This document shows positions 1 to 14,529 of a DNA stretch of 17,046 nt, piece after piece. The translations under genes were made by a program, and so were the position numbers. Origin of the DNA: a virus. Its lineage: Duplodnaviria; Heunggongvirae; Uroviricota; Caudoviricetes. Numbering within the stretch: the first letter of the stretch is position 1; every line of letters begins with the position of its first letter. Under the pieces are notes generated by a model. The model was not told the DNA's origin. It did not search any database and was given only the letters and a program-made list of their open reading frames with translations. The stretch is from the IMG/VR virus record IMGVR_UViG_2651869780_000020, positions 1 through 17,046 of that record. One strand, written 5' to 3'.

Positions 1-948
1 GGGCTATTGCAGTACACCGGAACGGCTATTCAGCAAATTACAGGTGCGTCGCAGCTTGAGAACATGCCGAGCAACGTCGCTACCGATACCGTTGATAGCA
101 TCTTTAACCGGATGGACACGCAGTCCTATATCTACATGGACAACATGGCTAAATCCATGCGCCGTGCTGGCGTCGTGTGGCTTTCTATGGCTCGTGAAGT
201 CTATGGCAGCGATACGCCAATGCGCATCGTTAATGAGGATGGCAGCGATGACGTGGCGCTGATGAATGGTGAAGTGGTTGACCGTCAGACAGGGAAGGTT
301 ATCGCGCTTAACGACCTTTCGCAGGGTAACTATGAAGTGACTGTCGATGTCGGTCAGTCGTTCGCTACTCGCCGTGATGCAACGGTTAAGTCGTTGCTTT
401 CCATGCTGTCACTTATCCCGCCAGGAACGCCGAAGCATGACCTTGTATCGTCGATGATTCTCGACAATATGGACGGCGAAGGGATGGGCGACCTTAAAGA
501 ATACAACCGCAATCAGTTGCTTCTGTCTGGCGTTATTAAGCCGAGAACACCAGAAGAACAGCAAATGGTTGAGCAGGCGAAACAACAACAGGCCAGTCAG
601 CCAGATCCGGCTATGGTTGCTGCGCAAGGTCAGCTTCTTGCTGGTCAGGCTGAATTGCAGAAAGCGCAGAACGAACAGGCAGCCATTCAGGTTAAAGCAT
701 TCCAGGCACAGACTGATGCTCAGGTTGCAGCGGCAAACGTTGTGAAAATCCTCGCATCTGCCGATAGCCAGCAGAAATCTGATATCCGCGAGGCTCTGAA
801 ACTGCTCGGACAGTTCCAGCAACAGCAAGGAGACAATGCCCGTGCTGATGCAGAGCTTGTCCTGAAAAGTCAGGCACAGGGTCATGCGCAGCGCATGGAC
901 ATCAGCAGCATCCTGCAAAAATCAACTCAGCAACAACCACAGCAGTAA
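1..948 (+). CDS. Portal protein, C-terminal part (5' end lies upstream of the window)
   Basis: The reading frame is open from base 1; the TTG at 7 in the ORF track is not a real start. Sits immediately upstream of scaffold and coat. Long Gln/Ala-rich helical C-terminus (..QQQASQ..AELQKAQNEQAAIQ..QQQPQQ) fits the extended C-terminal helix of P22-type portals. Stop TAA at 946-948. Confidence 0.8.
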   Translation, partial: GLLQYTGTAIQQITGASQLENMPSNVATDTVDSIFNRMDTQSYIYMDNMAKSMRRAGVVWLSMAREVYGSDTPMRIVNEDGSDDVALMNGEVVDRQTGKVIALNDLSQGNYEVTVDVGQSFATRRDATVKSLLSMLSLIPPGTPKHDLVSSMILDNMDGEGMGDLKEYNRNQLLLSGVIKPRTPEEQQMVEQAKQQQASQPDPAMVAAQGQLLAGQAELQKAQNEQAAIQVKAFQAQTDAQVAAANVVKILASADSQQKSDIREALKLLGQFQQQQGDNARADAELVLKSQAQGHAQRMDISSILQKSTQQQPQQ

Positions 949-1038
949 TTAACCCATAACGTGCAATGGCTGTCTTTATGAGGCCTGGCACCCTATTGCC
1001 TTCCGATGGGCTGAACATCGAGTAAACAGGGGTAACAA

Positions 1039-1932
1039 ATGGACCAGATGGCAGAAAACACACCAGAAGTTGAAATCGAAACCGATGCGTCAGAGCAGAT
1101 TCCTGATGATGTCGAACTGGCTGAAGAAGTCGAAACAGAAGATGGCAGTGAGTCCTCCGGCAATGATGCAGAGGAAGCTACTGAAACTGATGGCGACGAA
1201 TCAGAACAGGAATTCTACTTTGGTGACGAAAAGCTGGATTCGCCAACCAGCGAAGATGGCGCAGAGCATGGACTGGTAAAACACCTGCGCAAGACGATTA
1301 AAGAGAAAGACCGCGAGCTGAAAGAGCTGATGCGTCAGTCTCAGAAACCCGTCGAGCAGCAGCCGGTAATAACTCAACCACCGCGAATGCCAAAACTGGA
1401 TGATGAGGACATCGGTTTCGATGAAGAAATCTACCAGCAACGCATGGCTAAGTGGGCAGAGGATAACGGCAAGTACCAGCAACAGGAGATGGCTCGCAAG
1501 CAGAAGGAGCAGGAGCTTCAGGCTGCCTATCAAGAGCGATTATCCAAATATCAGCAACGTGTTAAGGCTCTCAAAGTTCCTGGCTATCAGGAAGCAGAAC
1601 AGGCCGTACTCGAGGAAATCCCCATCGAGACACAAAACGCGATCCTGTTTGAGTCAGAGAAGCCGGAAATCGTTGTTCTGGCGCTCGGTCGCAACGCTGA
1701 ACTGCGCAAGCAACTGGCAGAAGCTACCAACCCCGTAGCAATTGGTCGTCTGCTGGAACGTATCGAATCGAAGGCCAGAGTCATGCCAAAAGCAAAAACC
1801 ACGGCAGCCACAACCCCGACAGTTAAGGGGAGCAACGGCGCAGTAATCAACAACCTCGGCAAATTGAAAGCCAAGGCGCTGGAAACTGGTGACTGGACGC
1901 CGTATTTCGCCGCTAAAAAGGCAAAAAAATAA
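1039..1932 (+). CDS. Scaffolding protein
   Basis: 297 aa, located between portal and coat. Very acidic N-terminus, central charged helical region, basic C-terminal tail (..LGKLKAKALETGDWTPYFAAKKAKK) resembling the coat-binding helix-turn-helix end of P22 gp8. RBS cagggg at 1027-1032. Confidence 0.85.
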   Translation: MDQMAENTPEVEIETDASEQIPDDVELAEEVETEDGSESSGNDAEEATETDGDESEQEFYFGDEKLDSPTSEDGAEHGLVKHLRKTIKEKDRELKELMRQSQKPVEQQPVITQPPRMPKLDDEDIGFDEEIYQQRMAKWAEDNGKYQQQEMARKQKEQELQAAYQERLSKYQQRVKALKVPGYQEAEQAVLEEIPIETQNAILFESEKPEIVVLALGRNAELRKQLAEATNPVAIGRLLERIESKARVMPKAKTTAATTPTVKGSNGAVINNLGKLKAKALETGDWTPYFAAKKAKK

Positions 1933-1950
1933 CCTATCGGAGCATTAAAC

Positions 1951-3204
1951 ATGGCTAACCAATTAGCAAAAGACCTTGAAATCATGTTCGAAAACTACGT
2001 TGAAGGCTTTGAGGCCGCCTGCGTAGTTTCCCGTAACGCTAAAAAATTCCGTCCCGGTGATACAGCAATGCAGCGAGCAGGTGATGTTCTGTATCGTCCG
2101 CAGCATTACCACATGAACATTGAGGAAGGCCTAGACCTCAGCGGCAAAACGCCAACAGCACTGGTTCAGCGCCTTGTTCCTTCTGTGTTCAAGGAGCCGA
2201 AAAACATTCTGTACACTCTGGATGCGCGTGAAATGCGTGACCCGGAACATAAAACTGAAGCTGGTCGCGCCGCAGGTATGCGCCTTGCTGCACAGATTGA
2301 CTCTGACCTGATTTCCATGGTCACGCAGCGTGCTACTAACGTGATCACAATGGCTGACTCAACCACTGGTTCACAGGGTCGTGATTTGTGGAACTGTGCG
2401 GCAGGTATTGATGCCACCATGACGGCGATTGGTGTACCACAGGGTATCAACCGCCGCTCTTTCTGGAACCCCTTCAACTACAAAGACCTTGCTGGCGAGC
2501 TTGGTCACCGTGCCTATGCTCAGGGCGCAACCCTGACAGCATACGAAAAAGCGCAGATCCCTCCGGTTGCGTCCTTCGATAGCTACAAGACCGATATTTC
2601 TGGTCGTGTTCCGAAGGGTACAGCAACTTCCATTACGCTGGCAGCAGCACCTGCGCACAAGGTTGAAGCGAAAGATGCTAACGAAATGCCAGTGGATAAC
2701 CGACAGGGGACCATTACGGTATCTGCTGAAGGTTTGCAGGTTGGCGATGCGTTTACCATCGCAGGGGTGAATTCCGTACACCAGATCACCAAAGATACCA
2801 CCGGGCAGCCGCAGGTATTCCGCGTTCTGGCAGTTAGCGGAACGACAGTAACTATCTCCCCGAAAATTCTGCCGCCTGACAACGCGGATGTCGCCAGCCG
2901 TCCATATGCAAACGTTGATGCTAATGCGGCAAGTAGCGCAGCAATCACCATTCTCAACAAAAATGCCGCACCGGCTAACCTGTTCTGGGCTGATGGTTCT
3001 GTTGAACTGATGTACGGCAAACTGGCGTTCCCGACTGGTCAGGGTCCACAGGTAATGACAGCAACCACCGAGCAGGGCGCTACACTGATCATGTCTTACG
3101 CCTTCGACCACATCAAAGGCGTAACCACTGCGCGTTTCACCACTCTGTACGGTTGCTCTGTACTGGTTCCTGAATATACGGGCATCGTTATTGCCGGGCA
3201 GTAA
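1951..3204 (+). CDS. Major capsid (coat) protein, P22 gp5 family
   Basis: 417 aa. Recognisable similarity to P22 coat as recalled (e.g. RPYANVDANAASSAAITILN and FWADGSVELMYGKLAFP versus P22 RAYANVN...AVNILN and FWADDAIRIV). Position directly after scaffold; followed by a hairpin terminator. Confidence 0.9.
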   Translation: MANQLAKDLEIMFENYVEGFEAACVVSRNAKKFRPGDTAMQRAGDVLYRPQHYHMNIEEGLDLSGKTPTALVQRLVPSVFKEPKNILYTLDAREMRDPEHKTEAGRAAGMRLAAQIDSDLISMVTQRATNVITMADSTTGSQGRDLWNCAAGIDATMTAIGVPQGINRRSFWNPFNYKDLAGELGHRAYAQGATLTAYEKAQIPPVASFDSYKTDISGRVPKGTATSITLAAAPAHKVEAKDANEMPVDNRQGTITVSAEGLQVGDAFTIAGVNSVHQITKDTTGQPQVFRVLAVSGTTVTISPKILPPDNADVASRPYANVDANAASSAAITILNKNAAPANLFWADGSVELMYGKLAFPTGQGPQVMTATTEQGATLIMSYAFDHIKGVTTARFTTLYGCSVLVPEYTGIVIAGQ

Positions 3205-3210
3205 TTTAGG

Positions 3211-3234
3211 TGGGGCTTCGGCCCCATTTTTATT
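3211..3234 (+). terminator. Intrinsic terminator/attenuator immediately after the coat gene
   Basis: Stem tggggc (3211-3216), loop ttcg, stem gcccca (3221-3226), then T-rich run ttttatt, starting 7 nt after the coat stop codon. Likely partial, since downstream late genes must still be expressed. Confidence 0.6.
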
Positions 3235-3245
3235 GGGAGAAGACA

Positions 3246-3434
3246 ATGGCACGAACAATGCTCTATAAGCCGGGCAACATGATCACCTGTGGTCAGTTTG
3301 CTGTCGATTACATCATTGTTGATGACGAAGAAGTTAAATCTCACCTGAAAAAAGGCTGGGTAAAAACTCCTGAAGAAACCGCAACGAAGCAAAAAGTGGC
3401 TAAGGCGGAAGAAGATGGCGAAAACGAAGGGTGA
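3246..3434 (+). CDS. Small hypothetical protein (62 aa) between coat and gp4
   Basis: ATG at 3246 preceded by GGGAGA (3235-3240) at 5-nt spacing. The GTG at 3210 in the ORF track lies inside the terminator stem and is rejected. The 3' end overlaps the gp4 start by 20 nt. Acidic C-terminus. No family recognised. Confidence 0.45.
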   Translation: MARTMLYKPGNMITCGQFAVDYIIVDDEEVKSHLKKGWVKTPEETATKQKVAKAEEDGENEG

Positions 3435-3876
3435 TCTCGTTCTTAAGGCTTTACGAAAAGCCGGGCTGTATTCCAATGCCACGTTGACAGATGCTGACCC
3501 TCAGGCAATTGAAGATGCCATTAATGACCTCGAAGACATGATGGCAGCATGGCAGGCAAAAGGTATCGAGCTTGGGTATCAGTTTGCTGATACAGAAAAC
3601 GGCATCATGCCGTTACCTGACGATGATTCAGGTATCCCTGCATGGGCAAATGATGGCGTCGCTTTGAAACTCGCTGTGCAAGTGTGCATGGATAACGTCA
3701 TTCAGCCGTCAGACGCTCTCCTTACCGCTGCTGACAGTGCATATCAGACAATCTGTATCGCTTTAACCAAAATACCACCACTTGAGCGGAGAAATGACAT
3801 GCCTCGCGGTAGTGGTAACAAAAGCGCGTTTACGTGGAATCGGTTTTACATCGAGAAAGATGATCCGAGTACGTGA
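3415..3876 (+). CDS. Head-to-tail adaptor / tail accessory factor, P22 gp4-like
   Basis: 153 aa. N-terminus [33 protein letters not shown] closely resembles P22 gp4 as recalled ([33 protein letters not shown]). Position after coat. Confidence 0.85.
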   Translation: [153 protein letters not shown]

Positions 3877-3885
3877 GGTGAATAA

Positions 3886-5304
3886 ATGCCGATTCAGCAA
3901 CTTCCGCTTATGAAAGGTGTCGGCAAAGACTTTCGAAACGCCGACTATATCGACTATCTGCCAGTGAATATGTTGGCAACCCCCAAAGAAATCCTGAACA
4001 GCAGCGGATATCTTCGCTCATTCCCGGGCATTGCCAAACGCTCTGATGTGAACGGTGTATCGCGCGGCGTCGAGTACAACATGGCGCAGAATGCTGTTTA
4101 TCGTGTCTGTGGCGGCAAGCTCTACAAAGGCGAAAGCGAAGTCGGTGACGTCGCCGGAAGTGGTCGCGTATCAATGGCCCATGATCGGACATCACAGGCG
4201 GTAGGTGTTAACGGGAAACTGGTCGAGTATCGCTATGATGGCACGGTTAAAACAGTCTCAAACTGGCCAACAGACAGCGGATTCACGCAGTATGAATTAG
4301 GTTCGGTCCGTGACATTACGCGCTTACGTGGGCGTTATGCGTGGTCAAAAGACGGAACTGATTCATGGTTTATCACTGACCTTGAAGACGAATCGCATCC
4401 TGACCGCTACAGCGCACAATATCGCGCAGAATCGCAGCCGGACGGAATCATCGGTATCGGCACATGGCGAGACTTCATAGTCTGCTTTGGTTCATCAACG
4501 ATTGAATATTTCTCCCTGACTGGTGCAACCACAGTTGGTGCCGCTTTGTATGTCGCACAACCATCACTGATGGTGCAAAAAGGCATTGCCGGAACTTACT
4601 GCAAAACGCCGTTTGCTGACTCGTATGCGTTCATCAGCAATCCGGCAACAGGTGCGCCGTCTGTATACATCATCGGCTCCGGTCAGGTATCACCAATCGC
4701 CAGCGCGAGCATTGAGAAAATCCTCCGCTCCTACACTGCTGATGAACTGGCTGATGGCGTGATGGAATCGCTGAGATTTGATGCGCATGAACTGCTGATT
4801 ATCCATCTTACGCGCCACGTCCTCGTGTACGACGCATCTTCAAGCGCCAATGGTCCGCAATGGTGTGTACTGAAAACAGGCCTGTATGACGATGTGTACC
4901 GCGCTATCGACTTCATTTACGAAGGCAATCAGATAACGTGCGGCGATAAGCTGGAATCCATGACAGGGAAATTGCAATTCGACATCAGCAGCCAGTACGA
5001 CAAGCAACAGGAACATCTGCTGTTTACTCCTCTGTTCAAAGCGGATAACGCCAGAGTGTTCGACCTTGAAGTTGAATCGTCAACTGGAGTTGCGCAGTAC
5101 GCTGACCGCCTTTTTCTCTCTGCAACCACTGACGGCATCAATTACGGGCGTGAGCAGATGATTGAGCAGAATGAACCGTTCGTTTACGACAAACGCGTTT
5201 TGTGGAAGCGTGTCGGGCGAATAAGGAAAAATGTCGGCTTCAAATTGCGCGTTATCACTAAGTCACCTGTCACTCTCTCAGGCTGCCAGATAAGGATTGA
5301 GTAA
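3886..5304 (+). CDS. Tail hub / head completion protein, P22 gp10-like
   Basis: 472 aa, the same length as P22 gp10 as recalled, in the syntenic position between gp4 and the tail needle. RBS gaggtg at 3876-3881. Confidence 0.8.
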
Positions 5305-6005
5305 TGGCGGATTCGAATCTCAATGTGCCGGTAATCATTCAGGCTACACGGCTCGACACATCAGTCCTTCCACGCAATATCTTCTCGCAGTCGTATCTGC
5401 TTTACGTTATCGCACAGGGCACTGATGTTGGTAACGTGGCTAACAAGGCCAACGAGGCCGGACAGGGCGCTTACGATGCTCAGGTGAAAAACGATGAACA
5501 GGATGTCGAACTGGCTGACCACGATGCAAGAATCACCGCAAACACAAAAGCGATAAATCTCCTTGAGGTCAGGTTAACAACCGCCGAAGGGAAGATAGTC
5601 GTACTGCGTAGCGATGTTGATTACTTGCTGGATGAGGTTATCGATATTCAGGCGCATCTGGTCACTGTTGACCAAAGACTGGATGGCGTAGAAAGCGATG
5701 TATCTGACATTAAGAGTGATTACGTATCGAAAACCGTAACCGAATCGCAGTCTCTTGCGTCACCGCTGGATGTAAAAACATCATATTCAGTTGATGGAAT
5801 TCAGGTTGTTGGAGCAAGAAATACCGGATGGACTGCAGCCACAGGTACACCTCTTCTTGGCTCATTCAACGCTAACCAGTCATACACGGTCGGCACTACG
5901 TACACACAATCCGAAGTCGCGGCTCTCGCTACAGGTTTGCAGCAGGCGCGGCAGCGTATTCTGGCGCTTGAAACAGCACTTAGATTACATGGGCTGATTG
6001 ACTGA
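5304..6005 (+). CDS. Tail needle protein, P22 gp26-like
   Basis: 233 aa. N-terminus [43 protein letters not shown] and C-terminus ..ALRLHGLID are highly similar to P22 gp26 as recalled; coiled-coil heptads in between. Start overlaps the gp10 stop (TAATG). Confidence 0.9.
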
Positions 6006-6460
6006 TGATTACATTCAAACCAACGCGAAACATCGACCTGATCGAAGCAGTCGGAAATCACCCTGACATTATTGCCGGGAGCAACAACGGTGATGGATAC
6101 GACTACAAACCTGAATGCCGTTACTTTGAGGTGAACGTGCACGGGCAGTTCGGCGGCATTGTTTACTATCAGGAGATTCAGCCGCTGACATTCGATTGCC
6201 ACGCCATGTACCTGCCAGAGATTCGCGGCTTCAGCAAGGAAATCGGTCTGGCGTTCTGGCGATACATTCTGACTAACACCACCGTTCAGTGCGTCACATC
6301 GTTCGCTGCACGTAAATTCCGCCACGGTCAGATGTACTGCGCAATGATTGGCCTTAAGCGTGTAGGAACCATCAAGAAATACTTCAAAGGCGTGGATGAC
6401 GTGACGTTTTACAGCGCAACACGCGAAGAACTAATCGACTTCCTGAATCACGGGAGATAG
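6005..6460 (+). CDS. gp14-like protein (head assembly / ejection-associated)
   Basis: 151 aa in the P22 gene-14 position between the tail needle and gp7. Start overlaps the gp26 stop (TGATG). Assignment is by synteny and size only. Confidence 0.65.
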   Translation: MITFKPTRNIDLIEAVGNHPDIIAGSNNGDGYDYKPECRYFEVNVHGQFGGIVYYQEIQPLTFDCHAMYLPEIRGFSKEIGLAFWRYILTNTTVQCVTSFAARKFRHGQMYCAMIGLKRVGTIKKYFKGVDDVTFYSATREELIDFLNHGR

Positions 6461-6462
6461 CC

Positions 6463-7158
6463 ATGTTATATGCATTTAAGCTGGGCAGAAAACTGCGCGG
6501 CGAGGAACCTTATTGCCCTGAAAAAGGCGGGAAAGGTGGCAGTTCTGATAAAAGCGCAAAGTATGCAGCAGAAGCTCAGAAGTATGCCGCAGACCTGCAA
6601 AATCAGCAGTGGCAGACGATCATGAAAAACCTTGCTCCGTTCACGCCACTCGCTCAGCAGTACGTATCACAATTGCAGAATCTTTCCTCTCTTCAGGGAC
6701 AAGGTCAGGCACTTAACCAGTATTACAACTCTCAGCAGTACAAAGATCTTGCTGGTCAGGCTCGCTATCAGAGTCTGGCTGCAGCGGAAGCAACAGGTGG
6801 ATTGGGTTCCACTGCAACCGGTAATCAGTTAGCAACAATCGCACCAACGCTTGGTCAGCAGTGGCTGTCTGGTCAGATGAACAACTACCAGAATCTGGCA
6901 AATATTGGTCTTGGCGCACTGCAAGGTCAGGCAAACGCCGGGCAGACATATGCCAACAACATGAGTCAGATTTCGCAGCAAAGTGCGGCTCTTGCCGCTG
7001 CTAATGCCAATAAACCATCAGGTCTTCAGACAGCAATTAGCGGCGGAGCTTCAGGGGCTATGACTGGCGCTGCTCTTGGCTCTATTGTTCCCGGACTTGG
7101 CACTGGATTAGGTGCGGCAATTGGCGGCGGACTTGGCCTGCTTGGATCGTTGTTTTAA
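6463..7158 (+). CDS. Ejection (injection) protein, P22 gp7-like
   Basis: 231 aa versus about 229 aa for P22 gp7. Gln-rich low-complexity middle and a Gly/Ala-rich hydrophobic C-terminus (GAALGSIVPGLGTGLGAAIGGGLGLLGSLF) consistent with a membrane-inserting ejection protein. RBS gggaga at 6452-6457. Confidence 0.8.
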   Translation: MLYAFKLGRKLRGEEPYCPEKGGKGGSSDKSAKYAAEAQKYAADLQNQQWQTIMKNLAPFTPLAQQYVSQLQNLSSLQGQGQALNQYYNSQQYKDLAGQARYQSLAAAEATGGLGSTATGNQLATIAPTLGQQWLSGQMNNYQNLANIGLGALQGQANAGQTYANNMSQISQQSAALAAANANKPSGLQTAISGGASGAMTGAALGSIVPGLGTGLGAAIGGGLGLLGSLF

Positions 7159-7167
7159 GGGGTAATC

Positions 7168-8574
7168 ATGGCTACTTGGCAAGGAACAAATGGCGGATTG
7201 TTGGCTGGTATCGGTGGTGTCAACTCAAACGCTCCGAGCGTAAATGACATCGGCAATACGCTTCAGCTTATCAGACAGAACAATGATATTGAGCGTTCAG
7301 GCGCTAACAATGTTGGGCTGACTGCTTTGCAAGGTCTTTCAGGTATTGCGGGGGTGTTTCAGCAGGAAAAGCAGGCTCAGCGGCAGAAAGAATTTCAGCA
7401 GGCATACGCTAATGCTTATGCGTCTGGTGATCGCGGTGCTTTGCGTCAGTTGGCTACTCAATATCCAGACCAGATTGAATCCGTTCGTAAAGGCATGGGA
7501 TTCATTGACGAAGACCAGCGCAATTCTATCGGCACCTTAGCGGCTGGCGCACGCCTTGCGGCCTCGTCTCCAGAAGCAATGCAATCATGGCTGCAAAACA
7601 ACGCCAAGGAACTGGCGCGCGTCGGTGTTGACCCTAATAACGTTGCTCAGATGTATCAGCAGAATCCTTCAGGATTTGGTGAGTTTGTTGATCACCTTGG
7701 GATGGCTGCGCTTGGTCCGATTGATTACTTCAATGTTCAGGACAAGATGGCTGGTCGTGAGATTGACCGAGGCAGACTGGCAGAGACAATCCGCAGCAAT
7801 CAGGCTGGAGAAGCACTTCAGGCGAGAGGGCAAAACCTTTCCTATCAGTCAGCAATGACTGGGCACAATATCGCAGCACAACGCTTGGCTCTGGATCAGC
7901 AAGAGTTCGGGTTTAAGATGCAGCAAGCGCAGGAAAAGGCTCAGCAGTTGATTAGCGAAGCACCTAAGCTGTCAGTAAACATGGAAAAAGGCATCGAGAC
8001 GGCTGTAAACAATGCTACAGCATCATCAAACTCAGCCAATTCTATGAGTGCGCTTGCTCAACAGTTCAGAGCAGAAAAACCAACGACAGGTTTGTTCGGT
8101 AACGCACAGAACATGTTCGCAAAACTTACCGGAAGCGATACAACATTGCGTGATTTGCGCATCCGCCAAAATGCCCTTGTTAACAGTCAGGTTCTTAAAT
8201 TCCTACCTCCAGGCCCCGCAACGGATAAAGACGTTGAGATCGTTCGGCAGGGTGCACCAACTGACATGGATAACCCTGAGACGGTCGCAAGATGGCTTGA
8301 TGCGATGGCAAACCTTGAGCGACGAAACGCGCAGTTTAATGAGTTTAAAGCCGAGTGGATGAGCGCGAATGGCAATCCAGGACAATCGCGTAATGGCGGT
8401 CAGATATTGGGGTTGGATGTTAAAAAAGGTGAATCATTGGGGAGTGCCGTTAAGCGGTATATGTCAATGAATACTGACGCAGCGCCAGCACAAGATTCGA
8501 CACCTTCAGGAGAACCACGGAATCAGGTTGGATCATATACCTCAAAATCAGGCATTCAATTTACGGTGGAATGA
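7168..8574 (+). CDS. Ejection (injection) protein, P22 gp20-like
   Basis: 468 aa versus about 471 aa for P22 gp20; syntenic; RBS aagggg. Stop overlaps the next start (ATGA at 8571-8574). Confidence 0.8.
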
Positions 8575-10697
8575 TGAAAGTAACTGCAAACGGTAAGACA
8601 TTTACCTTCCCTGATGGTACGAGCACGGAAGATATTGGCACCGCCATTGATGAGTATTTTGCTGGTCAGGCTGTTCAGCAACAAACAGTTAATCAGGCCA
8701 ATAATGAACCAGCACGTGAAGAACCATCATTGATGCAACAAGCTGGCGATTGGCTCACAGGTGGTCAAAGTGCAGGGCAAATTGCAGAGCAGGCTGGTCG
8801 TGGTCTGGTAAACATACCATTTGACGTATTGCAGGGTGGCGCAAGTCTGATTAATGCAATCAGCCAGGGGCTTGGTGGCCCCAAGGTTTTGGATGATGTT
8901 TATCGCCCTGTCGATCGACCGACAGACCGTTGGGCGCAAGCCGGTGAAACATTTGGTGGGTATCTCCTGCCAATTGGCACAGCGGCAAAAGCTGCTGGAG
9001 CGACAGCAAAGCTCGCAGGAGACATCGGTTCCGCAGGAAACATGATTGCAGGTTCTCTTGCTGATGCTGCAAATCAGAAGGGTGATTTTGCACAAAATGC
9101 TGCCATTAACGGTGGTATCAATATTGGTGCTCAAGGCGTTCTTTCAGGTGTCGGGCGCGTTATTGCGCCAAGGGTTTCACAGGCTCTTGGTGGTGCAGCA
9201 CTGAATTCTGCTAATGATGTTTCCAGGATGGCAAAGTCAGGTGCTGGGCGTCAGTCAATTGCCAGTCAGGCCGCTAATGTGTCCGAAGATGTAGCAAAAG
9301 CGGCTGAGTCTGCTGGAATTGATATAAACGCATTAACACCAGGAATGCGATCTGGAAGTCGTGGAATTGCACAAGCCGAAGGCGCATTGGCATCAACACC
9401 AGGAATTGTTCAGGACGCCCATCAGGCAGCATTTAACGAAATATCATCAAAGTTAAGTCGAAACCTTGATGAATTTGGGGCCGCATCTGGAACGGCATCA
9501 GAAAAAAGTGCGGCTATAAAACAAAGGATTCTTCAAAATCTTGAACAGATGAAGGATGCCGAGCGCGCGGCATGGGATGACGTGCGGTCAACAATGCCAA
9601 ATCAAAAAGCAAGAATGCTAAATGGTAATGCCGTTATTCAGGCAGAGCGATCTGCTGGCATACCGCTTACTCCTGAAATGAAACAGTTTGTTCAGGCAAA
9701 CAATCAAGGTGGAGTAACATTTGATGGCATGAAAGCATGGAGAGCGAAATTTGCTGATGCGGAGCAAAAATATAAGCGTAGCGGAGAGGCAAATGCGGCA
9801 AGGAGAGCAGGGGAAATACGCCGGGCAATTACTGATGATATGCGCACAATGGCGGAAAACGGCGGATTTCTTGATGACTGGCAGAAAGCTAATGATCTGT
9901 CTAAAGCGAGGTTATCAGCACAAGAGAGTGCAGAGTCTGTTTTCGGGCGTGATTTGGCAACAGATGCACTGATTACGAATGGAGTAAAATCCCTTCAATC
10001 ATCGTCAGCTAAAGGTCTTAATGGCCCTGCTGGGTTCCATTCTATGATCCGCGCGCTGCCAGAATCAGAGCGTGTTCCTGCTATATCATCAATGTTGCAA
10101 GACGCTATCTCGCATGGTGTACGTGGTGGCAAAGCTGATGCAGCAGGAATTAACCATATCGCAGGGATACTTACCCCACAAAATGTAAAAGCCATTAGCA
10201 GATATTCCTCAGAACTCGGAAGAATTGCTGATGCATATGGCACTCTTGCAAGAGCAGCAGTGAAACCTCAGCAGTATATTGAAAGAACAGGGAGAACTGC
10301 CAATGTACTACGCGATCTGGATGCTGGTTTATCCAACGTCACATCAACAGTGTTAAATGCAATTGCCAACTCAACATCAGGTGCCATTGTTGGTGGCGCT
10401 GGAGGGGGTATTGCAGGCGCTGCCGCGGGTGCTTTAGTTGGCGCTGGGTTAAAAGGCGCTGTATCTAAAATTGCCACCACACGTAGTGGCCGATATGCGA
10501 TAGAGAAAGCTGTTCAGGAAGCCACCAAAGCAGTAAGAGCAGGCGGAAGTAAAGAAGCATTAGCGGCTGCGGAACGCAGATTTATGGCAAATAAGGCCGC
10601 CGTAAAAGCAATACGCGAGGCACTAGGAAACGAAGAGTTCCAGCGTTTAGCAAGAGCTGGAATTGTGGCATCGCTAAGCGGAATGGCACAGGAGTAA
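8571..10697 (+). CDS. Ejection (injection) protein, P22 gp16-like
   Basis: 708 aa, last and largest of the three ejection proteins. Gly/Ala-rich segments. Translationally coupled to gp20. Longer than P22 gp16 (about 609 aa as recalled). Confidence 0.8.
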
Positions 10698-11102
10698 TTA
10701 GTCATCCATGGATGGATTGAGCTTATCTCGTGTTGATGTGGCAATTTTCCCAACATTTTTCAACCAAGATTTTAAGAAGGATATGTCGTCCTTAATATCA
10801 TGAATATCCTCATTCTTTATACGATCAACCTTATCCTCTAAGCTCTCTATAGAACGCTCAATGCTAGACAGAGAGATTTTTAAGTCCCCTTGCTCACGTT
10901 CCAGTGAGGATTTGAGAGCACAATATTCGTTTTCTAGAATTCCTATTTTTTTTGTTAGAGAGTGCATTCGATACTCATACACCAAACCAGAAACGACTAA
11001 TGCAGCCAACAGAAACCATTCAAGCACACCAACCTCCTTAGTTTTGAGCAGGATACCAGATGATAATGTGTAGTTGGAGTAGCGCGGTTGTAATGCAAGC
11101 AT
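10698..11102 (-). CDS. Hypothetical membrane-anchored coiled-coil protein (candidate superinfection-exclusion function, P22 sieA position)
   Basis: 134 aa. One predicted transmembrane helix (LEWFLLAALVVSGLVYEY) followed by a heptad-rich charged segment (LENEYCALKSSLEREQGDLKISLSSIERSIESLEDKVDRIKNEDIHDIKDDISFLKSW). AT-rich. Convergent with gp16 with abutting stop codons (TAATTA at 10695-10700). No obvious SD sequence. No family recognised. Confidence 0.55.
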   Translation of the reverse strand: MLALQPRYSNYTLSSGILLKTKEVGVLEWFLLAALVVSGLVYEYRMHSLTKKIGILENEYCALKSSLEREQGDLKISLSSIERSIESLEDKVDRIKNEDIHDIKDDISFLKSWLKNVGKIATSTRDKLNPSMDD

Positions 11103-11182
11103 TTTGTTTTAGTTTTATGCTTGCTTGTATGTGTGTACAGTGTATATAATGCAAGCATACATCACAACAAAGGTGCTTGCAT
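11093..11182. repeat. Four copies of a 9-10 bp near-palindromic motif in alternating orientation: ATGCAAGCAT (11093-11102), ATGCTTGC (11117-11124), ATGCAAGCAT (11149-11158), TGCTTGCAT (11174-11182)
   Basis: Read directly from the sequence. The copies form two imperfect inverted-repeat units of about 32 bp, spaced about 56 bp apart. Copy 1 overlaps the start codon of the - strand membrane protein; copy 2 overlaps the -35; copy 3 abuts the -10; copy 4 lies between the RBS and the ATG of the 322-aa gene. Confidence 0.6.
11121..11150 (+). promoter_or_regulatory. Sigma70-like promoter for the 322-aa accessory gene
   Basis: TTGCTT (11121-11126), 18-bp spacer, TATAAT (11145-11150); RBS aggtg at 11171-11175; ATG at 11184. 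Confidence 0.55.
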
Positions 11183-11183
11183 T

Positions 11184-12152
11184 ATGACTGAAAAGAAAAG
11201 TGGCGAAGGGAAAGCTAAGGGCGGGATCGCTCGCGCAAAGTCGCTGACTAAAGAGCAGCGTTCTGAAATAGCAAAGAAAGCAGCTGCTGCAAGATGGAAA
11301 AGTAAGATTCTCAGGGCAACTCATCGTGGTAACTTTTTAGATGATTTTGGCATTGATGCTGAATGTTATGTACTGGATGACGAGTCGAAAACTGTCGTTG
11401 TTACGAAAACTGGATTATCTCAGTTGCTAGGGATTGGTGAACATGCCAGGGATTTAGATCAACTGCTTGGCGCTCAGTATATGAGCAAATACCGAGATCT
11501 AGAATTGCAGCGAAAAATGGAAAATCCCTATAAATTTCAACTTACTTCGAAGTCTAAAACCGTTCATCAAGCGTTAGGTTATGACATTACAGCAATTGTT
11601 GATATTGGTAGGGCACTAATAGAAGCCAAAGATAATGACGATCTACCACAATCACGGTTAAAGGCAGCCGCCGCAGCACAGAGACTTATTAATGCCTCCG
11701 CTAAGGCGGGAATTAAGGGGGTTGCGTATGCGCTTGCTGGTTATCGTCCAGAAGTTCAGGCTGTCATTGACGAGTTCAAAGCGTTTGTTCGTGAAGAGGC
11801 TCGTCAATATGAAAAGGAATTTCCAGATGAGCTATACGAGGAGTGGTATCGACTGTACGGCCTGAATAGGCCAGAGAAAGGACGGCCTATTCGTTTTGGG
11901 CAGCTAACCAACATGCAGATATACACCCCGCTAGCAAAGAGTAAAGGTAAAATCCTTGAACAGATTCGAGCCAGCCGAGACGAGAACGGAAAACAATCTG
12001 ATAAGTTGCATCTGTTCCTTTCTGAAATTGGTGTCAAGGCTTTGCGTCAGCATATCGGTAAGCTTCTTGGTGTCGCAGCGATGAGTGAGACAAGAGAAGA
12101 ATACGAAAAAGGAATAGAAAAGGTTTTCGGAAGAATGAAACCAGAAATCTAA
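11184..12152 (+). CDS. Hypothetical 322-aa accessory (moron) protein with a basic N-terminal helix-turn-helix-like motif; function unknown
   Basis: Long ORF with its own promoter and a strong terminator. The TTG start at 11121 in the ORF track is rejected in favour of ATG 11184 (MTEKKSGEGKAKGGIARAKSLTKEQRSEIAKKAAAARW..). The remainder is a charged, helical-looking domain. Not part of the conserved P22 structural set. Confidence 0.75.
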   Translation: MTEKKSGEGKAKGGIARAKSLTKEQRSEIAKKAAAARWKSKILRATHRGNFLDDFGIDAECYVLDDESKTVVVTKTGLSQLLGIGEHARDLDQLLGAQYMSKYRDLELQRKMENPYKFQLTSKSKTVHQALGYDITAIVDIGRALIEAKDNDDLPQSRLKAAAAAQRLINASAKAGIKGVAYALAGYRPEVQAVIDEFKAFVREEARQYEKEFPDELYEEWYRLYGLNRPEKGRPIRFGQLTNMQIYTPLAKSKGKILEQIRASRDENGKQSDKLHLFLSEIGVKALRQHIGKLLGVAAMSETREEYEKGIEKVFGRMKPEI

Positions 12153-12157
12153 TTATG

Positions 12158-12183
12158 AAACCCACCGTCAGGTGGGTTTTTTG
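12158..12183. terminator. Intrinsic terminator, probably bidirectional
   Basis: aaacccacc (12158-12166), loop gtca, ggtgggttt (12171-12179), T-run to 12183; A-rich on the upstream side. Lies between the convergent 322-aa gene (+) and the 67-aa gene (-). Confidence 0.8.
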
Positions 12184-12198
12184 TTGGAGATAAAATGG

Positions 12199-12402
12199 TT
12201 AACCAAATCGATCCTTAAAGCGCCTATCGCTGTTGCGTCTCTCCATTTTACTGTTGCAGTACGGACAAAGATGCTGTTTCTTTCCATCGATAGTCCATGT
12301 GAAGTACTTTTTCTTAAATCCAGCACCACAGATATCGCAACTTCTTGGTTTAAACATACTGGCTATGAAGATAAGAACAACAAATCCTATGATCCATTCC
12401 AT
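12199..12402 (-). CDS. Small membrane-anchored zinc-ribbon protein (67 aa)
   Basis: N-terminal hydrophobic helix (EWIIGFVVLIFIASMF) followed by CDIC..(19 aa)..CPYC, i.e. four Cys in a C-x2-C...C-x2-C arrangement, and a basic tail. Ends just before the bidirectional terminator. Confidence 0.5.
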   Translation of the reverse strand: MEWIIGFVVLIFIASMFKPRSCDICGAGFKKKYFTWTIDGKKQHLCPYCNSKMERRNSDRRFKDRFG

Positions 12403-12543
12403 ATCATGTACCTGTTTTAACTTTATTTTTTGATTTTTAGGGATTAATCAGAAACTTTATCTTGCGATTAAGCAAAGCTACTAGCTAACAAAAGAGTGCG
12501 TATACAATCAATCGTTTCACATCAACCTCAACAAGGAGAAATC

Positions 12544-12729
12544 ATGACCATAGAAGAACGCCTGAACAACATTGAGTTGAACCAAACCCTGCTTGACCAG
12601 CGACTTTCAGATCTTGAGCTTAAAGATCTTGATGCGCAAATATCAGAAGCAGAAGCCAAGCTCTCCAGCTTAAACCACCGCAAGAAGCAAATCCGCAACA
12701 GAATTACTCAGGGACGCGGAAGCTGTTGA
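12544..12729 (+). CDS. Small coiled-coil protein (61 aa)
   Basis: ATG 12544 preceded by a strong SD AAGGAG (12533-12538) at 5-nt spacing; the GTG at 12496 in the ORF track is rejected. Sequence MTIEERLNNIELNQTLLDQRLSDLELKDLDAQISEAEAKL.. is heptad-like. The 3' end overlaps the convergent 69-aa ORF by 26 nt. Confidence 0.5.
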   Translation: MTIEERLNNIELNQTLLDQRLSDLELKDLDAQISEAEAKLSSLNHRKKQIRNRITQGRGSC

Positions 12730-12913
12730 GGTGGGATGCTAGGTCTCTATCGTTAAAATCAAGGCTGCTAATCATTTCATTGTAAATGGCGTTTTTATCT
12801 TCCATTGGCAGTCTTGAGTAAACCAGACACAGAGCATATTTCAGGGAGTTTAGCTCTTTCTCTAGCTCTTCCTTGCTTGACGTTGTTGACTTAATAAACT
12901 GTTTTTTATTCAT
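12704..12913 (-). CDS. Hypothetical 69-aa protein, translationally coupled downstream of mnt
   Basis: On the - strand its ATG overlaps the mnt TGA stop (ATGA at 12910-12913). No recognisable family. Confidence 0.45.
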   Translation of the reverse strand: MNKKQFIKSTTSSKEELEKELNSLKYALCLVYSRLPMEDKNAIYNEMISSLDFNDRDLASHLNSFRVPE

Positions 12914-13161
12914 TTTGCATCCTTACCATACATGGTCTTTAGCGTCTCAACATCGTGTTCAAGATCTATCAATCGTGATGCTATAGTTGCAAGGTCTAGT
13001 GCTTGAATGTGTTTATTTTTTTCGGTCCACGCTTCAAGTGCCGCGACCATCTCAGCATTTAATGAACGAGAATTAGCCTCAGCCAGTTCAATAAGACGTT
13101 CCTTTATCTCTACAGGAAGCCTCAGATTCACTTGAGGGTTTTTGTACTTACGATCAGACAT
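12910..13161 (-). CDS. mnt: Mnt-like ribbon-helix-helix repressor (Arc/MetJ superfamily)
   Basis: 83 aa, the same length as P22 Mnt as recalled. N-terminus ..NLRLPVEIKERLIELAEANSRSLNAEMVAALEAW matches the RHH beta-strand/helix pattern of P22 Mnt (..FRMPMEVREKLKFRAEANGRSMNSELLQIV..). Divergent from arc. Confidence 0.8.
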   Translation of the reverse strand: MSDRKYKNPQVNLRLPVEIKERLIELAEANSRSLNAEMVAALEAWTEKNKHIQALDLATIASRLIDLEHDVETLKTMYGKDAK

Positions 13162-13266
13162 CGGCGCATCCTGAATAATTTTTTACCACAGGATATGTAG
13201 GTATCTATTGACTATCAATGCGTACCTAAATGCTATGTATGCGTACCACGTACAACGGAGGATGCA
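13162..13266. promoter_or_regulatory. Divergent promoter/operator region between mnt and arc (Pmnt/Pant-like)
   Basis: 105-bp intergenic region. Palindrome ATTGA-cta-TCAAT (13207-13219) contains back-to-back -35-like hexamers (TTGACT on +, TTGATA on -). Direct repeat ATGCGTACC at 13218-13226 and 13239-13247, 21 bp apart. Inverted ATCCTG/CAGGAT (13168-13173 / 13189-13194). AGGATGC precedes both start codons. Exact -10 elements are ambiguous. Confidence 0.55.
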
Positions 13267-13407
13267 ATGAAGGTAAAAACACTGCGTATGCCAGAGAAGC
13301 TAGAAAAAATTCTTGAAGAAAAAGCAAAGGAAGAGTGTCGCTCATTCAGCGCAGAAGTAATTAAACGGGTGCTGGACAGCCTGAGGAGAGAGGGGATAAC
13401 GGTGTGA
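13267..13407 (+). CDS. arc: Arc-like ribbon-helix-helix repressor (46 aa; below the ORF-track size cutoff)
   Basis: Own translation: MKVKTLRMPEKLEKILEEKAKEECRSFSAEVIKRVLDSLRREGITV. The segment RSFSAEVIKRVLDSLRREG resembles P22 Arc RSVNSEIYQRVMESFKKEG as recalled. SD GGAGG at 13256-13260. Sits between mnt and ant as in P22 immI. Confidence 0.75.
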   Translation: MKVKTLRMPEKLEKILEEKAKEECRSFSAEVIKRVLDSLRREGITV

Positions 13408-13423
13408 TTCGCTTGGATGCGGC

Positions 13424-13472
13424 AAAGAAATCAAAACAGTGAAGCCCCAACTGCGGGAACAGTCAGGGCTTC
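13424..13472 (-). terminator. Intrinsic terminator oriented for leftward (- strand) transcription in the arc-ant spacer
   Basis: Stem GAAGCCC (13441-13447) / GGGCTTC (13466-13472) with an inner ACTG/CAGT helix. On the - strand it is followed by ACUGUUUUGAUUUCUUU (complement of 13424-13440). No U-run follows it on the + strand. Confidence 0.55.
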
Positions 13473-13505
13473 GGTATCGTAAAACCACGCATAGGAATTA
13501 ACGAC
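13424..13505 (-). ncRNA. Predicted sar-like small antisense RNA, complementary to the ant ribosome-binding site
   Basis: Inferred from a - strand promoter inside the ant 5' end (see 13512-13540) plus the - strand terminator at 13424-13472. The predicted transcript of about 80 nt is antisense to the ant SD (agga 13493-13496) and start region, analogous to the P22 Sar RNA. Ends are approximate. Confidence 0.4.
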
Positions 13506-14429
13506 ATGAAAAGTATAGCAACAGCAGTATCTACTATCAATGTACCATTCCACGGCGCAGAGCTTTATGTTGTCAATCACAACGGCGAACCGTATACCCC
13601 AATGAAACCTATCGTTGAGGGAATGGGGCTAGACTGGAAATCTCAACATAAGAAGATTTCTCAACGCTTCTCGAAGGGTATGGTGGAAATCACCATACCT
13701 TCTGCCGGTGGGGTGCAAGCCATGATTTGTATGGCTTTACGAAAATTGGCAGCTTGGTTGAACAGCATCAGTCCTAACAAAGTCCGCCCTGAAATCCGCG
13801 ACAAGGAAATCCAGTATCAGGAAGAGTGTGACGATGTGCTCTACGAGTACTGGACTAAAGGCCATGTAGTTAACCCACGCAAAGCTAAAAAGGCGTTGCC
13901 GGGTAAAATCACCACTGAACAGCAGGAAGCCATTAAACAACTCGTCATGAGTCGCGGTCAGTCTCTGCCAAAAGAAAAACAGGCTAAGGCGATGATCACC
14001 ATGTGGTCGTCACTGAAATCTCATTTTGGGTGTTCATACAAAGAAATCAGCGATGAGCAGTTTACCGAAGCTCTGTCACTTGCAGCTCGCGTTCCGCTTG
14101 AAGGCGAGTTAATCGGCAAACAAGAGAAGAAAGCAAACGAGCTTTCTGCAAAAGAAGCAAACAGCCTTGTATGGTTATGGGATTATGCCAACCGCTCACA
14201 GGCATTATTCCGCGAACTGTATCCGGCGCTAAAACAAATTCAATCGAACTATTCCGGCAGATGTCATGACTGCGGTTATGAGTTCTCCCGTATTATCGAT
14301 ATGGCGAGAGATGTTTTAATCAACCATACACGAGATGTTGATATTAATGAGCCAGACGGACCAACGAATCTTTCCGCATGGATGAGACTTAAGAATAAAG
14401 AATTACCTCCTTCAGTACATAACTACTGA
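13506..14429 (+). CDS. ant: Antirepressor (Ant-like)
   Basis: 307 aa versus about 300 aa for P22 Ant. Located directly downstream of arc. N-terminal pattern (..VPFHGAELYVV..GEPYTPMKPIVEGMGLDWKSQHKKI..) is reminiscent of phage antirepressor N-terminal domains. Followed by a terminator. Confidence 0.7.
   Translation: MKSIATAVSTINVPFHGAELYVVNHNGEPYTPMKPIVEGMGLDWKSQHKKISQRFSKGMVEITIPSAGGVQAMICMALRKLAAWLNSISPNKVRPEIRDKEIQYQEECDDVLYEYWTKGHVVNPRKAKKALPGKITTEQQEAIKQLVMSRGQSLPKEKQAKAMITMWSSLKSHFGCSYKEISDEQFTEALSLAARVPLEGELIGKQEKKANELSAKEANSLVWLWDYANRSQALFRELYPALKQIQSNYSGRCHDCGYEFSRIIDMARDVLINHTRDVDINEPDGPTNLSAWMRLKNKELPPSVHNY
13512..13540 (-). promoter_or_regulatory. Psar-like leftward promoter inside the first codons of ant
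   Basis: On the - strand: TTGATA (complement of 13535-13540), 17-bp spacer, TATACT (complement of 13512-13517); the predicted start is near the ant ATG. Confidence 0.5.
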
Positions 14430-14446
14430 CAGATAACCAACGCAAC

Positions 14447-14472
14447 GACCCAGCTTCGGCTGGGTTTTTTTA
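14447..14472 (+). terminator. Intrinsic terminator between ant and the tailspike
   Basis: acccagc (14448-14454), loop ttcg, gctgggt (14459-14465), then a run of 7 T. Confidence 0.8.
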
Positions 14473-14529
14473 TGCCCAAAATTCACCGTAGCCACGCTGC
14501 GGCGATTCCTTGCATCTGGAGCAAATTAA

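Follow-up and report, generated by a model that had tools for sequence, protein, structure and literature searches.

A small membrane-anchored Cys4 finger protein in the sieA slot of a P22-like Escherichia coli prophage: a candidate exclusion factor

What does a 67-codon open reading frame (ORF) between the ejection-protein genes and immI of a P22-like prophage encode, and what might it do for a lysogen? The question is raised by positions 1 to 17,046 of the IMG/VR virus record IMGVR_UViG_2651869780_000020 (Caudoviricetes), a stretch of 17,046 nucleotides that we analysed as a whole and call the window; it is the late-operon/immI end of a P22-like (Lederbergvirus) Escherichia coli prophage. 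Few proteins are known that halt the entry of phage DNA at the inner membrane; SieA is one of them, and the ORF, at 12199–12402 on the minus strand, is a different and much smaller occupant of the SieA slot. A preliminary description, made from the sequence without database searches, had read it as a membrane-tethered zinc-ribbon microprotein that could act as a sensor or effector partner of the neighbouring proteins. Here we find it very probable, taking all parts together, that the ORF is a real gene, that its product combines an N-out/C-in membrane anchor with a Cys4 finger, and that it travels as an autonomous cassette; more tentatively, we propose a role in superinfection exclusion.

The ORF has the coordinates first given for it and runs from an ATG through 67 codons to a TAA. 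The exact protein is UniProt A0A4Q9CEK0, present on 425 contigs in GenBank/UniProt under the name ‘hypothetical protein’. Poor annotation had been remarked on from the start and is borne out: the Prokaryotic Genome Annotation Pipeline (PGAP) leaves the gene out, with a gap of ~390 bp, in all four RefSeq complete E. coli genomes inspected (L002, L005, L006 and L007), and Pfam, NCBIfam, PADLOC and PHROG give no function. This annotation gap would fit an ORF present by chance, or a decayed remnant, within an intergenic spacer, and so would the weak Shine–Dalgarno match of the window allele (AGG, 10–12 nt before the ATG); a GGAG or AAGG motif stands at the right distance in 16 of 19 distinct homologue upstream regions and is absent from the E. 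coli allele here. Conservation speaks clearly against such an origin. Full-length homologues with 61–97% identity were found by tblastn and protein searches in prophages and phages across genera, including Klebsiella phages KP12, klb_E and KpnBHU6, Edwardsiella phage Edno5, and further hosts such as Escherichia, Yersinia, Salmonella, Pantoea, Citrobacter and Serratia, and profile searching adds hundreds of relatives. The 45 copies comprise 32 distinct DNA alleles; between clades their synonymous sites are saturated, whereas nonsynonymous divergence (dN) is only 0.14–0.26; the ratio of dN to synonymous divergence (dS) has a median of 0.056 over the 54 pairs with measurable dS. Only a single copy is frameshifted, and a single copy has a C25S substitution (P0007/L025).

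At the residue level, all four cysteines, P19, K30, T35, W36, I38, G40, K41 and K42 are invariant or nearly so in close relatives, and the cysteines and many basic residues are kept in 21 close and 70 distant relatives. Loss of the cysteines in homologues had been named beforehand as an observation that would count against the protein; all four are kept, with C25S as one natural exception. Of the window's 196 stop-free segments 40 aa or longer, one has the pattern C..C-x(10–30)-C..C, and shuffled sequence averages 0.1. The selection analysis thus refutes a chance origin, to which we assign a negligible probability, and indicates that the ORF is a genuine gene under purifying selection.

The encoded protein consists of a hydrophobic helix followed by a basic finger. 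Residues 3–17 (WIIGFVVLIFIASMF; 12352–12396, minus strand) have a mean Kyte–Doolittle hydropathy of 2.68, and AlphaFold2, run with an 18-sequence alignment (mean pLDDT 82.6), predicts a helix at residues 2–16, in agreement with the N-terminal transmembrane helix originally proposed. Only two residues precede the anchor. The other 50 residues contain 14 K/R against 5 D/E, so that the basic tail also stands, and they hold two CxxC pairs, C22/C25 (12328–12339) and C46/C49 (12256–12267), separated by a spacer that we measure at 20 residues instead of the 19 first reported. After the anchor, the model places a knuckle at C22–C25, a beta-hairpin at 34–38/41–45 and a helix at 47–66 that opens at C46-P-Y-C49. 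This is the order of elements in a treble clef, namely an N-terminal knuckle, a beta-hairpin and a C-terminal helix with the last two ligands in its first turn. A classical zinc ribbon has both CxxC pairs in beta-hairpin turns and a three-stranded sheet, whereas the prediction contains a single hairpin and the second CxxC starts a helix. The finger is accordingly predicted to be treble-clef-like and not a classical two-hairpin zinc ribbon. Of the earlier ‘zinc-ribbon’ label, the Cys4 finger with two CxxC pairs can be kept and the ribbon cannot, given the predicted fold and the sub-threshold Pfam zinc-ribbon matches (Zn_ribbon_8, PF09723, 16.8 versus 34.4 bits; DZR_2, PF18912, 15.4 versus 27 bits). 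The broader picture of a small membrane-tethered Cys4 zinc-finger protein holds, with an anchor and four conserved cysteines that would bind zinc.

Some relatives carry a signal peptide/LprI-like region or SH3_3 or Sel1 domains N-terminal to the anchor. Because these are periplasmic-type domains, and in line with the positive-inside rule, the finger is expected to be cytoplasmic, and the protein would adopt an N-out/C-in topology in the inner membrane. An aromatic/basic belt, FKKKYFTW, adjoins the membrane.

The same combination of anchor and finger recurs widely. A profile search of 1.84 billion representatives returned 303 clusters at E ≤ 1e-3, a list whose tail includes eukaryotic C2H2 artefacts (P0144 and P0162), and 76 clusters at E ≤ 1e-10; a scan of a genome collection with a narrower alignment gave 13 loci. 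The family signature is C-x2-C-x3-[IL]-[KR]-[KR]-x2-Y-x-W-x-[IV]-x-G-K-K-x3-C-P-x-C-N-x3-E-[RK]-x2-S. In 70 diverse relatives C25, C46, C49 and S58 never vary, and conservation reaches at least 90% at C22, W36, P47 and N50. Of 159 proteins that bear the motif, 150 have a hydrophobic segment, whose end precedes the first cysteine by a median of 6 residues; the finger region carries a median net charge of +9, and unlike the finger, the anchor is not conserved in sequence. The family reaches Planctomycetota and Methylotenera, is enriched on phage and mobile DNA, and includes ~100-aa two-helix relatives on phage-like or integrase-bearing contigs. Eleven cluster representatives with 40–57% identity consist of an anchor, the finger and a bona fide HNH nuclease, and one of these fusions adjoins DndB-like and D12 methylase genes; another relative carries a HIRAN domain. 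The HNH-fused relatives are the metagenomic P0124, P0216–P0222, P0224, P0234 and P0243; L075 (6001–6486) is a locus of this subfamily.

No family in Pfam, NCBIfam, PADLOC, PHROG or PDB claims the protein; the only matches are to generic zinc fingers and lie below threshold. The score of one close homologue, P0015, against Pfam zf_Tbcl_Rhp7 is 26.9 bits, just under the cut-off of 27. The NCBIfam model TIGR00270 (archaeal MBF1, N-terminal finger) matches seven of the eight finger-family proteins scanned weakly over its first 37–51 positions (E 1.5e-6 to 2e-3); for the window protein we rejected it at 22.8 bits against a cut-off of 110, with model positions 1–37 of 159 aligned. Fold searches gave no significant match: the candidates were FYVE, LIM and ZZ fingers, the Lsr2 dimerisation domain, the HNH domains of ZRANB3, Cap5 and GVE2 and, in BFVD, endonuclease VII, and the weak matches are mostly treble-clef-type fingers (FYVE, LIM, ZZ, ArfGAP and L24e). 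A profile search of PDB sequences found only eukaryotic C2H2 arrays, which we attribute to the C..C/K-rich composition. JGI labels on relatives (‘phage Mu Com’, ‘ribosome-binding protein’ and ‘pyruvate formate-lyase activating enzyme-like’) appear to be automatic and were not used.

The finger itself does not qualify as an HNH/His-Me nuclease because no catalytic histidine is conserved in the hairpin (H44 is kept only in the close clade, and the conserved residue is N50); Pfam HNH_5 matches the C-terminal part only, at E = 0.079. A type I toxin of the Hok/Ldr/TisB kind was also discarded, the anchor being the least conserved part of the protein and Rfam giving no antisense or toxin-associated RNA at 12100–12550, where the only match is a spurious sroH fragment on a hairpin. 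A literature search on membrane zinc-finger exclusion proteins and mnt-linked zinc proteins found no description of the anchor–finger family. The protein is known so far only as a database ‘hypothetical protein’, and it defines an uncurated domain family.

The gene occupies a well-defined place in the prophage. Assignments in the window were made from an ORF map, from Pfam, PHROG and Rfam scans and from comparison with related phages, and give the following features.

Up to 10697: coat and ejection-protein genes, the last being a gene-16 homologue at 8571–10697
10698–11102, minus strand: hkcB-like transmembrane/coiled-coil ORF (phrog_5962)
11181–12152, plus strand: P63C-domain gene
12157–12185, both strands: hairpin and T-run common to the convergent P63C and zinc-finger genes; left edge of the mobile cassette
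12199–12402, minus strand: zinc-finger gene, 67 codons, stop codon TAA at 12199–12201, protein MEWIIGFVVLIFIASMFKPRSCDICGAGFKKKYFTWTIDGKKQHLCPYCNSKMERRNSDRRFKDRFG
12202–12348, minus strand: basic Cys4 finger, residues 19–67, from the AlphaFold2 model and conservation
12403–12533, minus strand: upstream region of 131 bp that travels with the zinc-finger gene; promoter presumed
12544–12729, plus strand: orf61, coiled-coil protein (phrog_7586), divergent from the zinc-finger gene
12704–12913, minus strand: orf69 (phrog_16466)
12910–13161, minus strand: Mnt-like Arc-family repressor gene, head of a leftward operon (Pfam Arc domain, E = 3e-10)
13267–13407, plus strand: arc
13438–13504, minus strand: clear sar antisense RNA, located between arc and ant as it is in P22 immI (Rfam RF00262; 76.6 bits, gathering score 43)
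13506–14429, plus strand: ant
14530–16569, plus strand: tailspike gene

The gene thus lies in the prophage accessory region, as had been supposed, between the ejection-protein genes and immI. E. coli prophages with differing flanks have in common a block from 12155 to ~12741, and phages Kapi1 and Emek match the window only from 12533/12534 rightwards, that is, from orf61 onward; their left slot is filled by other small secreted proteins. In the closest sequenced phage, vB_EcoP-611R6, the P63C gene leads directly to mnt, without the zinc-finger gene. Because the common block starts at 12155 and the sharing with Kapi1 and Emek at 12533/12534, the hairpin, the ORF and the 131 bp upstream form a unit of their own, and the comparison indicates that 12155–12533 is a self-contained accessory (‘moron’) cassette of the P22-like prophage. 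An 851-bp stretch around the ORF matches 224 of 5,426 complete E. coli genomes (~4%), and identical DNA adjoins tRNA-Arg/intS in E. coli chromosomes.

At the left edge of the cassette, 18 nt past the stop codon, lies a 10-bp hairpin (12157–12180) with a CCCACC/GGTGGG stem extended by A-U and G-U pairs. It folds on both strands (z = −3.8 and −3.3), and homologues in Serratia (L059) and Yersinia (L020 and L024) likewise have a CCCACC-N4-GGTGGG hairpin behind them, in the Serratia case with a better U-run. In the window the U-run is canonical only on the plus-strand transcript of the P63C gene (UUUUUUGUU), and the ORF strand has the weak UUUCAUAAUU; hence the ‘bidirectional terminator’ seen earlier does fold both ways, but is only half-canonical. 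A terminator scan of the window did not list this hairpin. On the other side of the gene, folding of the upstream region revealed no structure beyond chance. The region also contains a perfect 11-bp palindrome, AGCTACTAGCT, at 12476–12486, which could be an operator, although such a palindrome is not rare by chance in 140 bp (rough estimate ~0.14).

Does the protein work with its neighbours? The suggestion of a sensor or effector partner is not supported by the comparison of loci. To the left of the gene, E. coli prophages carry a P63C protein, a Panacea-domain protein or an unrelated 139-aa protein; to the right there is orf69, a ClpP-like gene or a 105-aa ORF. Some homologues stand alone, in tail operons or at chromosomal sites in Lelliottia and Photorhabdus. 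An obligate pair with orf61 was rejected, since Kapi1 and Emek have orf61 without the zinc-finger gene. Because neighbours vary and solo copies exist, the protein is not an obligate partner of any of them.

One neighbour does recur, and had escaped the preliminary description: a Mnt/Arc-family repressor gene lies directly upstream on the same strand, at a distance of 0–37 bp, in ~30 of 42 IMG/VR loci and in KP12 and Edno5, and the repressor operon carrying the zinc-finger gene runs divergent from arc–ant. The window differs, with orf69 and the antisense orf61 between mnt, which ends at 12910, and the zinc-finger gene, which starts at 12402. Other upstream genes are a CI-like repressor in Budvicia and a RelE-like toxin in Rosenbergiella. 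In P22, orf59a is part of the mnt transcript and is followed by sieA, which lies between gene 16 and mnt; orf59a, at the same operon position, was considered as a homologue and is unrelated. Since P22 has orf59a and sieA there, the zinc-finger slot is a classical lysogenic-conversion slot. The gene lies between the gene-16 homologue and immI/gene 9 of a P22-like prophage, which is the position described for sieA in such prophages (PMC10883804). A tblastn search with P22 SieA (type A; types B and C lay outside this comparison) against the window and the compared loci matched P22 only, so that no SieA homologue was detected in any compared locus with the finger gene.

Several further observations concern the surrounding genes. 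The slot left of the cassette (11181–12152 here, 4124–4573 in the compared locus L007) is a second variable cargo position. The genes orf61 and orf69 converge with a 26-bp overlap, orf61 has a strong AAGGAGA ribosome-binding site, and it would be antisense to any transcription that reads through from the mnt promoter to the zinc-finger gene. The hkcB-like ORF (10698–11102, minus strand) encodes one hydrophobic segment followed by a coiled coil, and its stop codon abuts that of gene 16; it is annotated as 75, 100 or 134 aa in different records and its start codon is therefore uncertain. Downstream of the tailspike gene, a 124-aa ORF (16626–17000, minus strand) has several hydrophobic segments and no Pfam match, and may encode a lysogenic-conversion membrane protein or a fragment of one.

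What, then, might the protein do? With no constant partner, and with the finger as the conserved part, we read it as autonomous, the helix only holding the finger in place. It would be a bitopic inner-membrane protein anchored by the non-conserved N-terminal helix, with its two-residue N-terminus outside and the very basic finger starting about six residues after the anchor, against the cytoplasmic face of the membrane. As its synteny with repressor genes suggests, it would be made in the lysogen, driven either by the Mnt-repressor operon or by the region upstream of the gene. Its function would reside in the finger, which the helix merely positions at the site where the DNA and ejection proteins of an incoming phage reach the cytoplasm. 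At that site the finger might bind nucleic acid or the injection machinery and so exclude superinfecting phage, and the protein would be the counterpart, without a nuclease, of membrane-anchored defence proteins. The conserved, very high positive charge, the beta-beta-alpha zinc-finger fold and the HNH and HIRAN fusions suggest nucleic acid or the injection apparatus as the target, and the fusions point to DNA. The HNH fusions parallel SNIPE in layout (PMC13190303), AbiP and PdpSau offer further precedents for an anchor joined to a basic nucleic-acid-binding domain in phage resistance (PMC10127798), and SieA is an example of an inner-membrane injection blocker encoded in this slot (PMC10883804). 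In its full form, including the function, this statement of a membrane-proximal exclusion factor at the DNA entry point is a tentative one, which we consider quite possible while keeping substantial doubt.

A number of observations weigh against this proposal. A sigma-70 scan gave no convincing minus-strand promoter in 12403–12533, and the Shine–Dalgarno match of the allele is the weak one described above. Linkage to mnt does not guarantee expression in the lysogen, because mnt is not detectably transcribed in a Kapi1 lysogen (PMC12922286). The defence-family models of PADLOC do not match the protein, some homologues lie in ordinary chromosomal settings without phage genes nearby, and relatives with a nuclease fusion form only a diverged minority. 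Lipid or protein binding could fit a basic juxtamembrane finger equally well.

Three other functions have to be weighed against exclusion at the point of entry. The protein could be an abortive-infection or membrane-toxin effector whose finger senses a phage product or nucleic acid, upon which the anchors oligomerise, depolarise the membrane and kill the cell. The architecture of AbiP and PdpSau, with membrane permeabilisation on infection (PMC10127798), is a precedent for this, and some homologues adjoin RelE/ParE-like or SymE toxin genes. However, it is the finger that is conserved and not the anchor, the opposite of what is seen in pore-forming small toxins; Rfam over 10600–14600 gave no antisense RNA or toxin family, only sar, which lies elsewhere; and 224 of the 5,426 complete E. 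coli genomes carry the gene stably without a dedicated antidote gene, and we regard such an effector as improbable. A component of the immI (mnt–arc–ant) switch, for example one that tethers Ant or another regulator at the membrane and thereby stabilises lysogeny, would explain why, in ~30 of 42 viral loci that represent several phage types, the gene lies directly downstream of mnt and often overlaps it or starts no more than 37 bp away, and why its operon is divergent from arc–ant. It would not explain the homologues in tail operons and chromosomal sites with no mnt, arc or ant nearby, the copies behind CI-type repressor or toxin genes, or the extension of the family to Planctomycetota and Methylotenera, and both P22 and vB_EcoP-611R6 run immI without the zinc-finger gene. 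We consider this role very unlikely.

Effects on the host offer a third option. Many small bacterial membrane proteins modulate host physiology, and the basic finger might likewise bind a host inner-membrane protein, be it a transporter or a part of the division or secretion machinery, or else anionic phospholipid, and thereby alter the fitness of the lysogen. A review provides general context for such small membrane proteins (PMC12719787). Besides this precedent, the FKKKYFTW belt at the membrane, the FYVE, LIM and ArfGAP fingers among the weak fold matches and the chromosomal solo copies are consistent with such a modulator, whereas the missing conserved host-gene neighbour, the enrichment of the family on phage and mobile DNA and the HNH and HIRAN fusions, with their pointer to DNA, argue against it; a host modulator is of a similarly low probability to the abortive-infection effector. 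Exclusion at the DNA entry point can also be put in a more general form, in which anchor and basic finger constitute an undescribed, widespread module that recognises nucleic acid or the injection apparatus at the inner face of the cytoplasmic membrane, the 67-aa protein being its minimal, nuclease-free form and a new kind of superinfection-exclusion factor expressed with the repressor, and the HNH relatives a second, independent family of membrane nucleases that, by analogy with SNIPE, act at the injection stage. This wider statement we hold to be unlikely, if worth stating.

Should the finger indeed bind the entering DNA or ejection proteins, a genetically tractable probe of the injection step would be available in only 67 residues, and the recurrent anchor–finger–HNH fusions would be explained as SNIPE-type membrane nucleases. 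The family comprises hundreds of clusters described by no curated database, and it is found in ~4% of complete E. coli genomes and in prophages of several pathogens. The omission of the gene by PGAP flags a systematic annotation gap.

Among known systems, the generic Cys4 fingers (Zn_ribbon_8, DZR_2, zf_Tbcl_Rhp7 and TIGR00270) share two CxxC pairs around a short beta-hairpin, but have neither the membrane anchor nor the W-x-I-x-G-K-K ... C-P-x-C-N ... E-R-x-x-S signature. From the beta-beta-alpha-metal fingers of HNH enzymes and endonuclease VII, the window finger differs in having no conserved hairpin histidine and a shorter spacing from the hairpin to the second knuckle, and the scores are not significant. 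SieA is a prophage-encoded inner-membrane protein that blocks DNA injection by P22-like phages (PMC10883804). P22 SieA resembles our protein in membrane location, in prophage carriage and in the position of its gene on the mnt strand between gene 16 and mnt, but it has ~162 aa and three transmembrane helices and no Cys4 finger. SNIPE joins a poorly conserved N-out single-pass anchor to a basic DNA-binding domain and a nuclease, with which it cleaves phage DNA while this is being injected (PMC13190303). Like SNIPE/PD-lambda-1, a membrane-bound GIY-YIG nuclease, the window protein would hold a positively charged cytoplasmic module at the membrane by an N-out anchor; it does not match SNIPE in sequence (PADLOC and Pfam), and whereas SNIPE has ~500 aa, the window protein ends 50 residues after the anchor, without a nuclease or DUF4041. 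The anchor–finger–HNH relatives reproduce the full SNIPE layout of anchor, binder and nuclease, with a different binder and a different nuclease. AbiP of Lactococcus and PdpSau of a Staphylococcus aureus prophage confer phage resistance with an N-terminal anchor and a basic, nucleic-acid-binding cytoplasmic domain (PMC10127798). They share with the window protein the anchor, the positively charged cytoplasmic domain and carriage on prophages or mobile elements; they differ in that an OB fold of ~250 aa takes the place of the zinc finger, in acting by abortive infection and in showing no homology. Of the known kinds, the protein fits the prophage-encoded small inner-membrane accessory or exclusion proteins.

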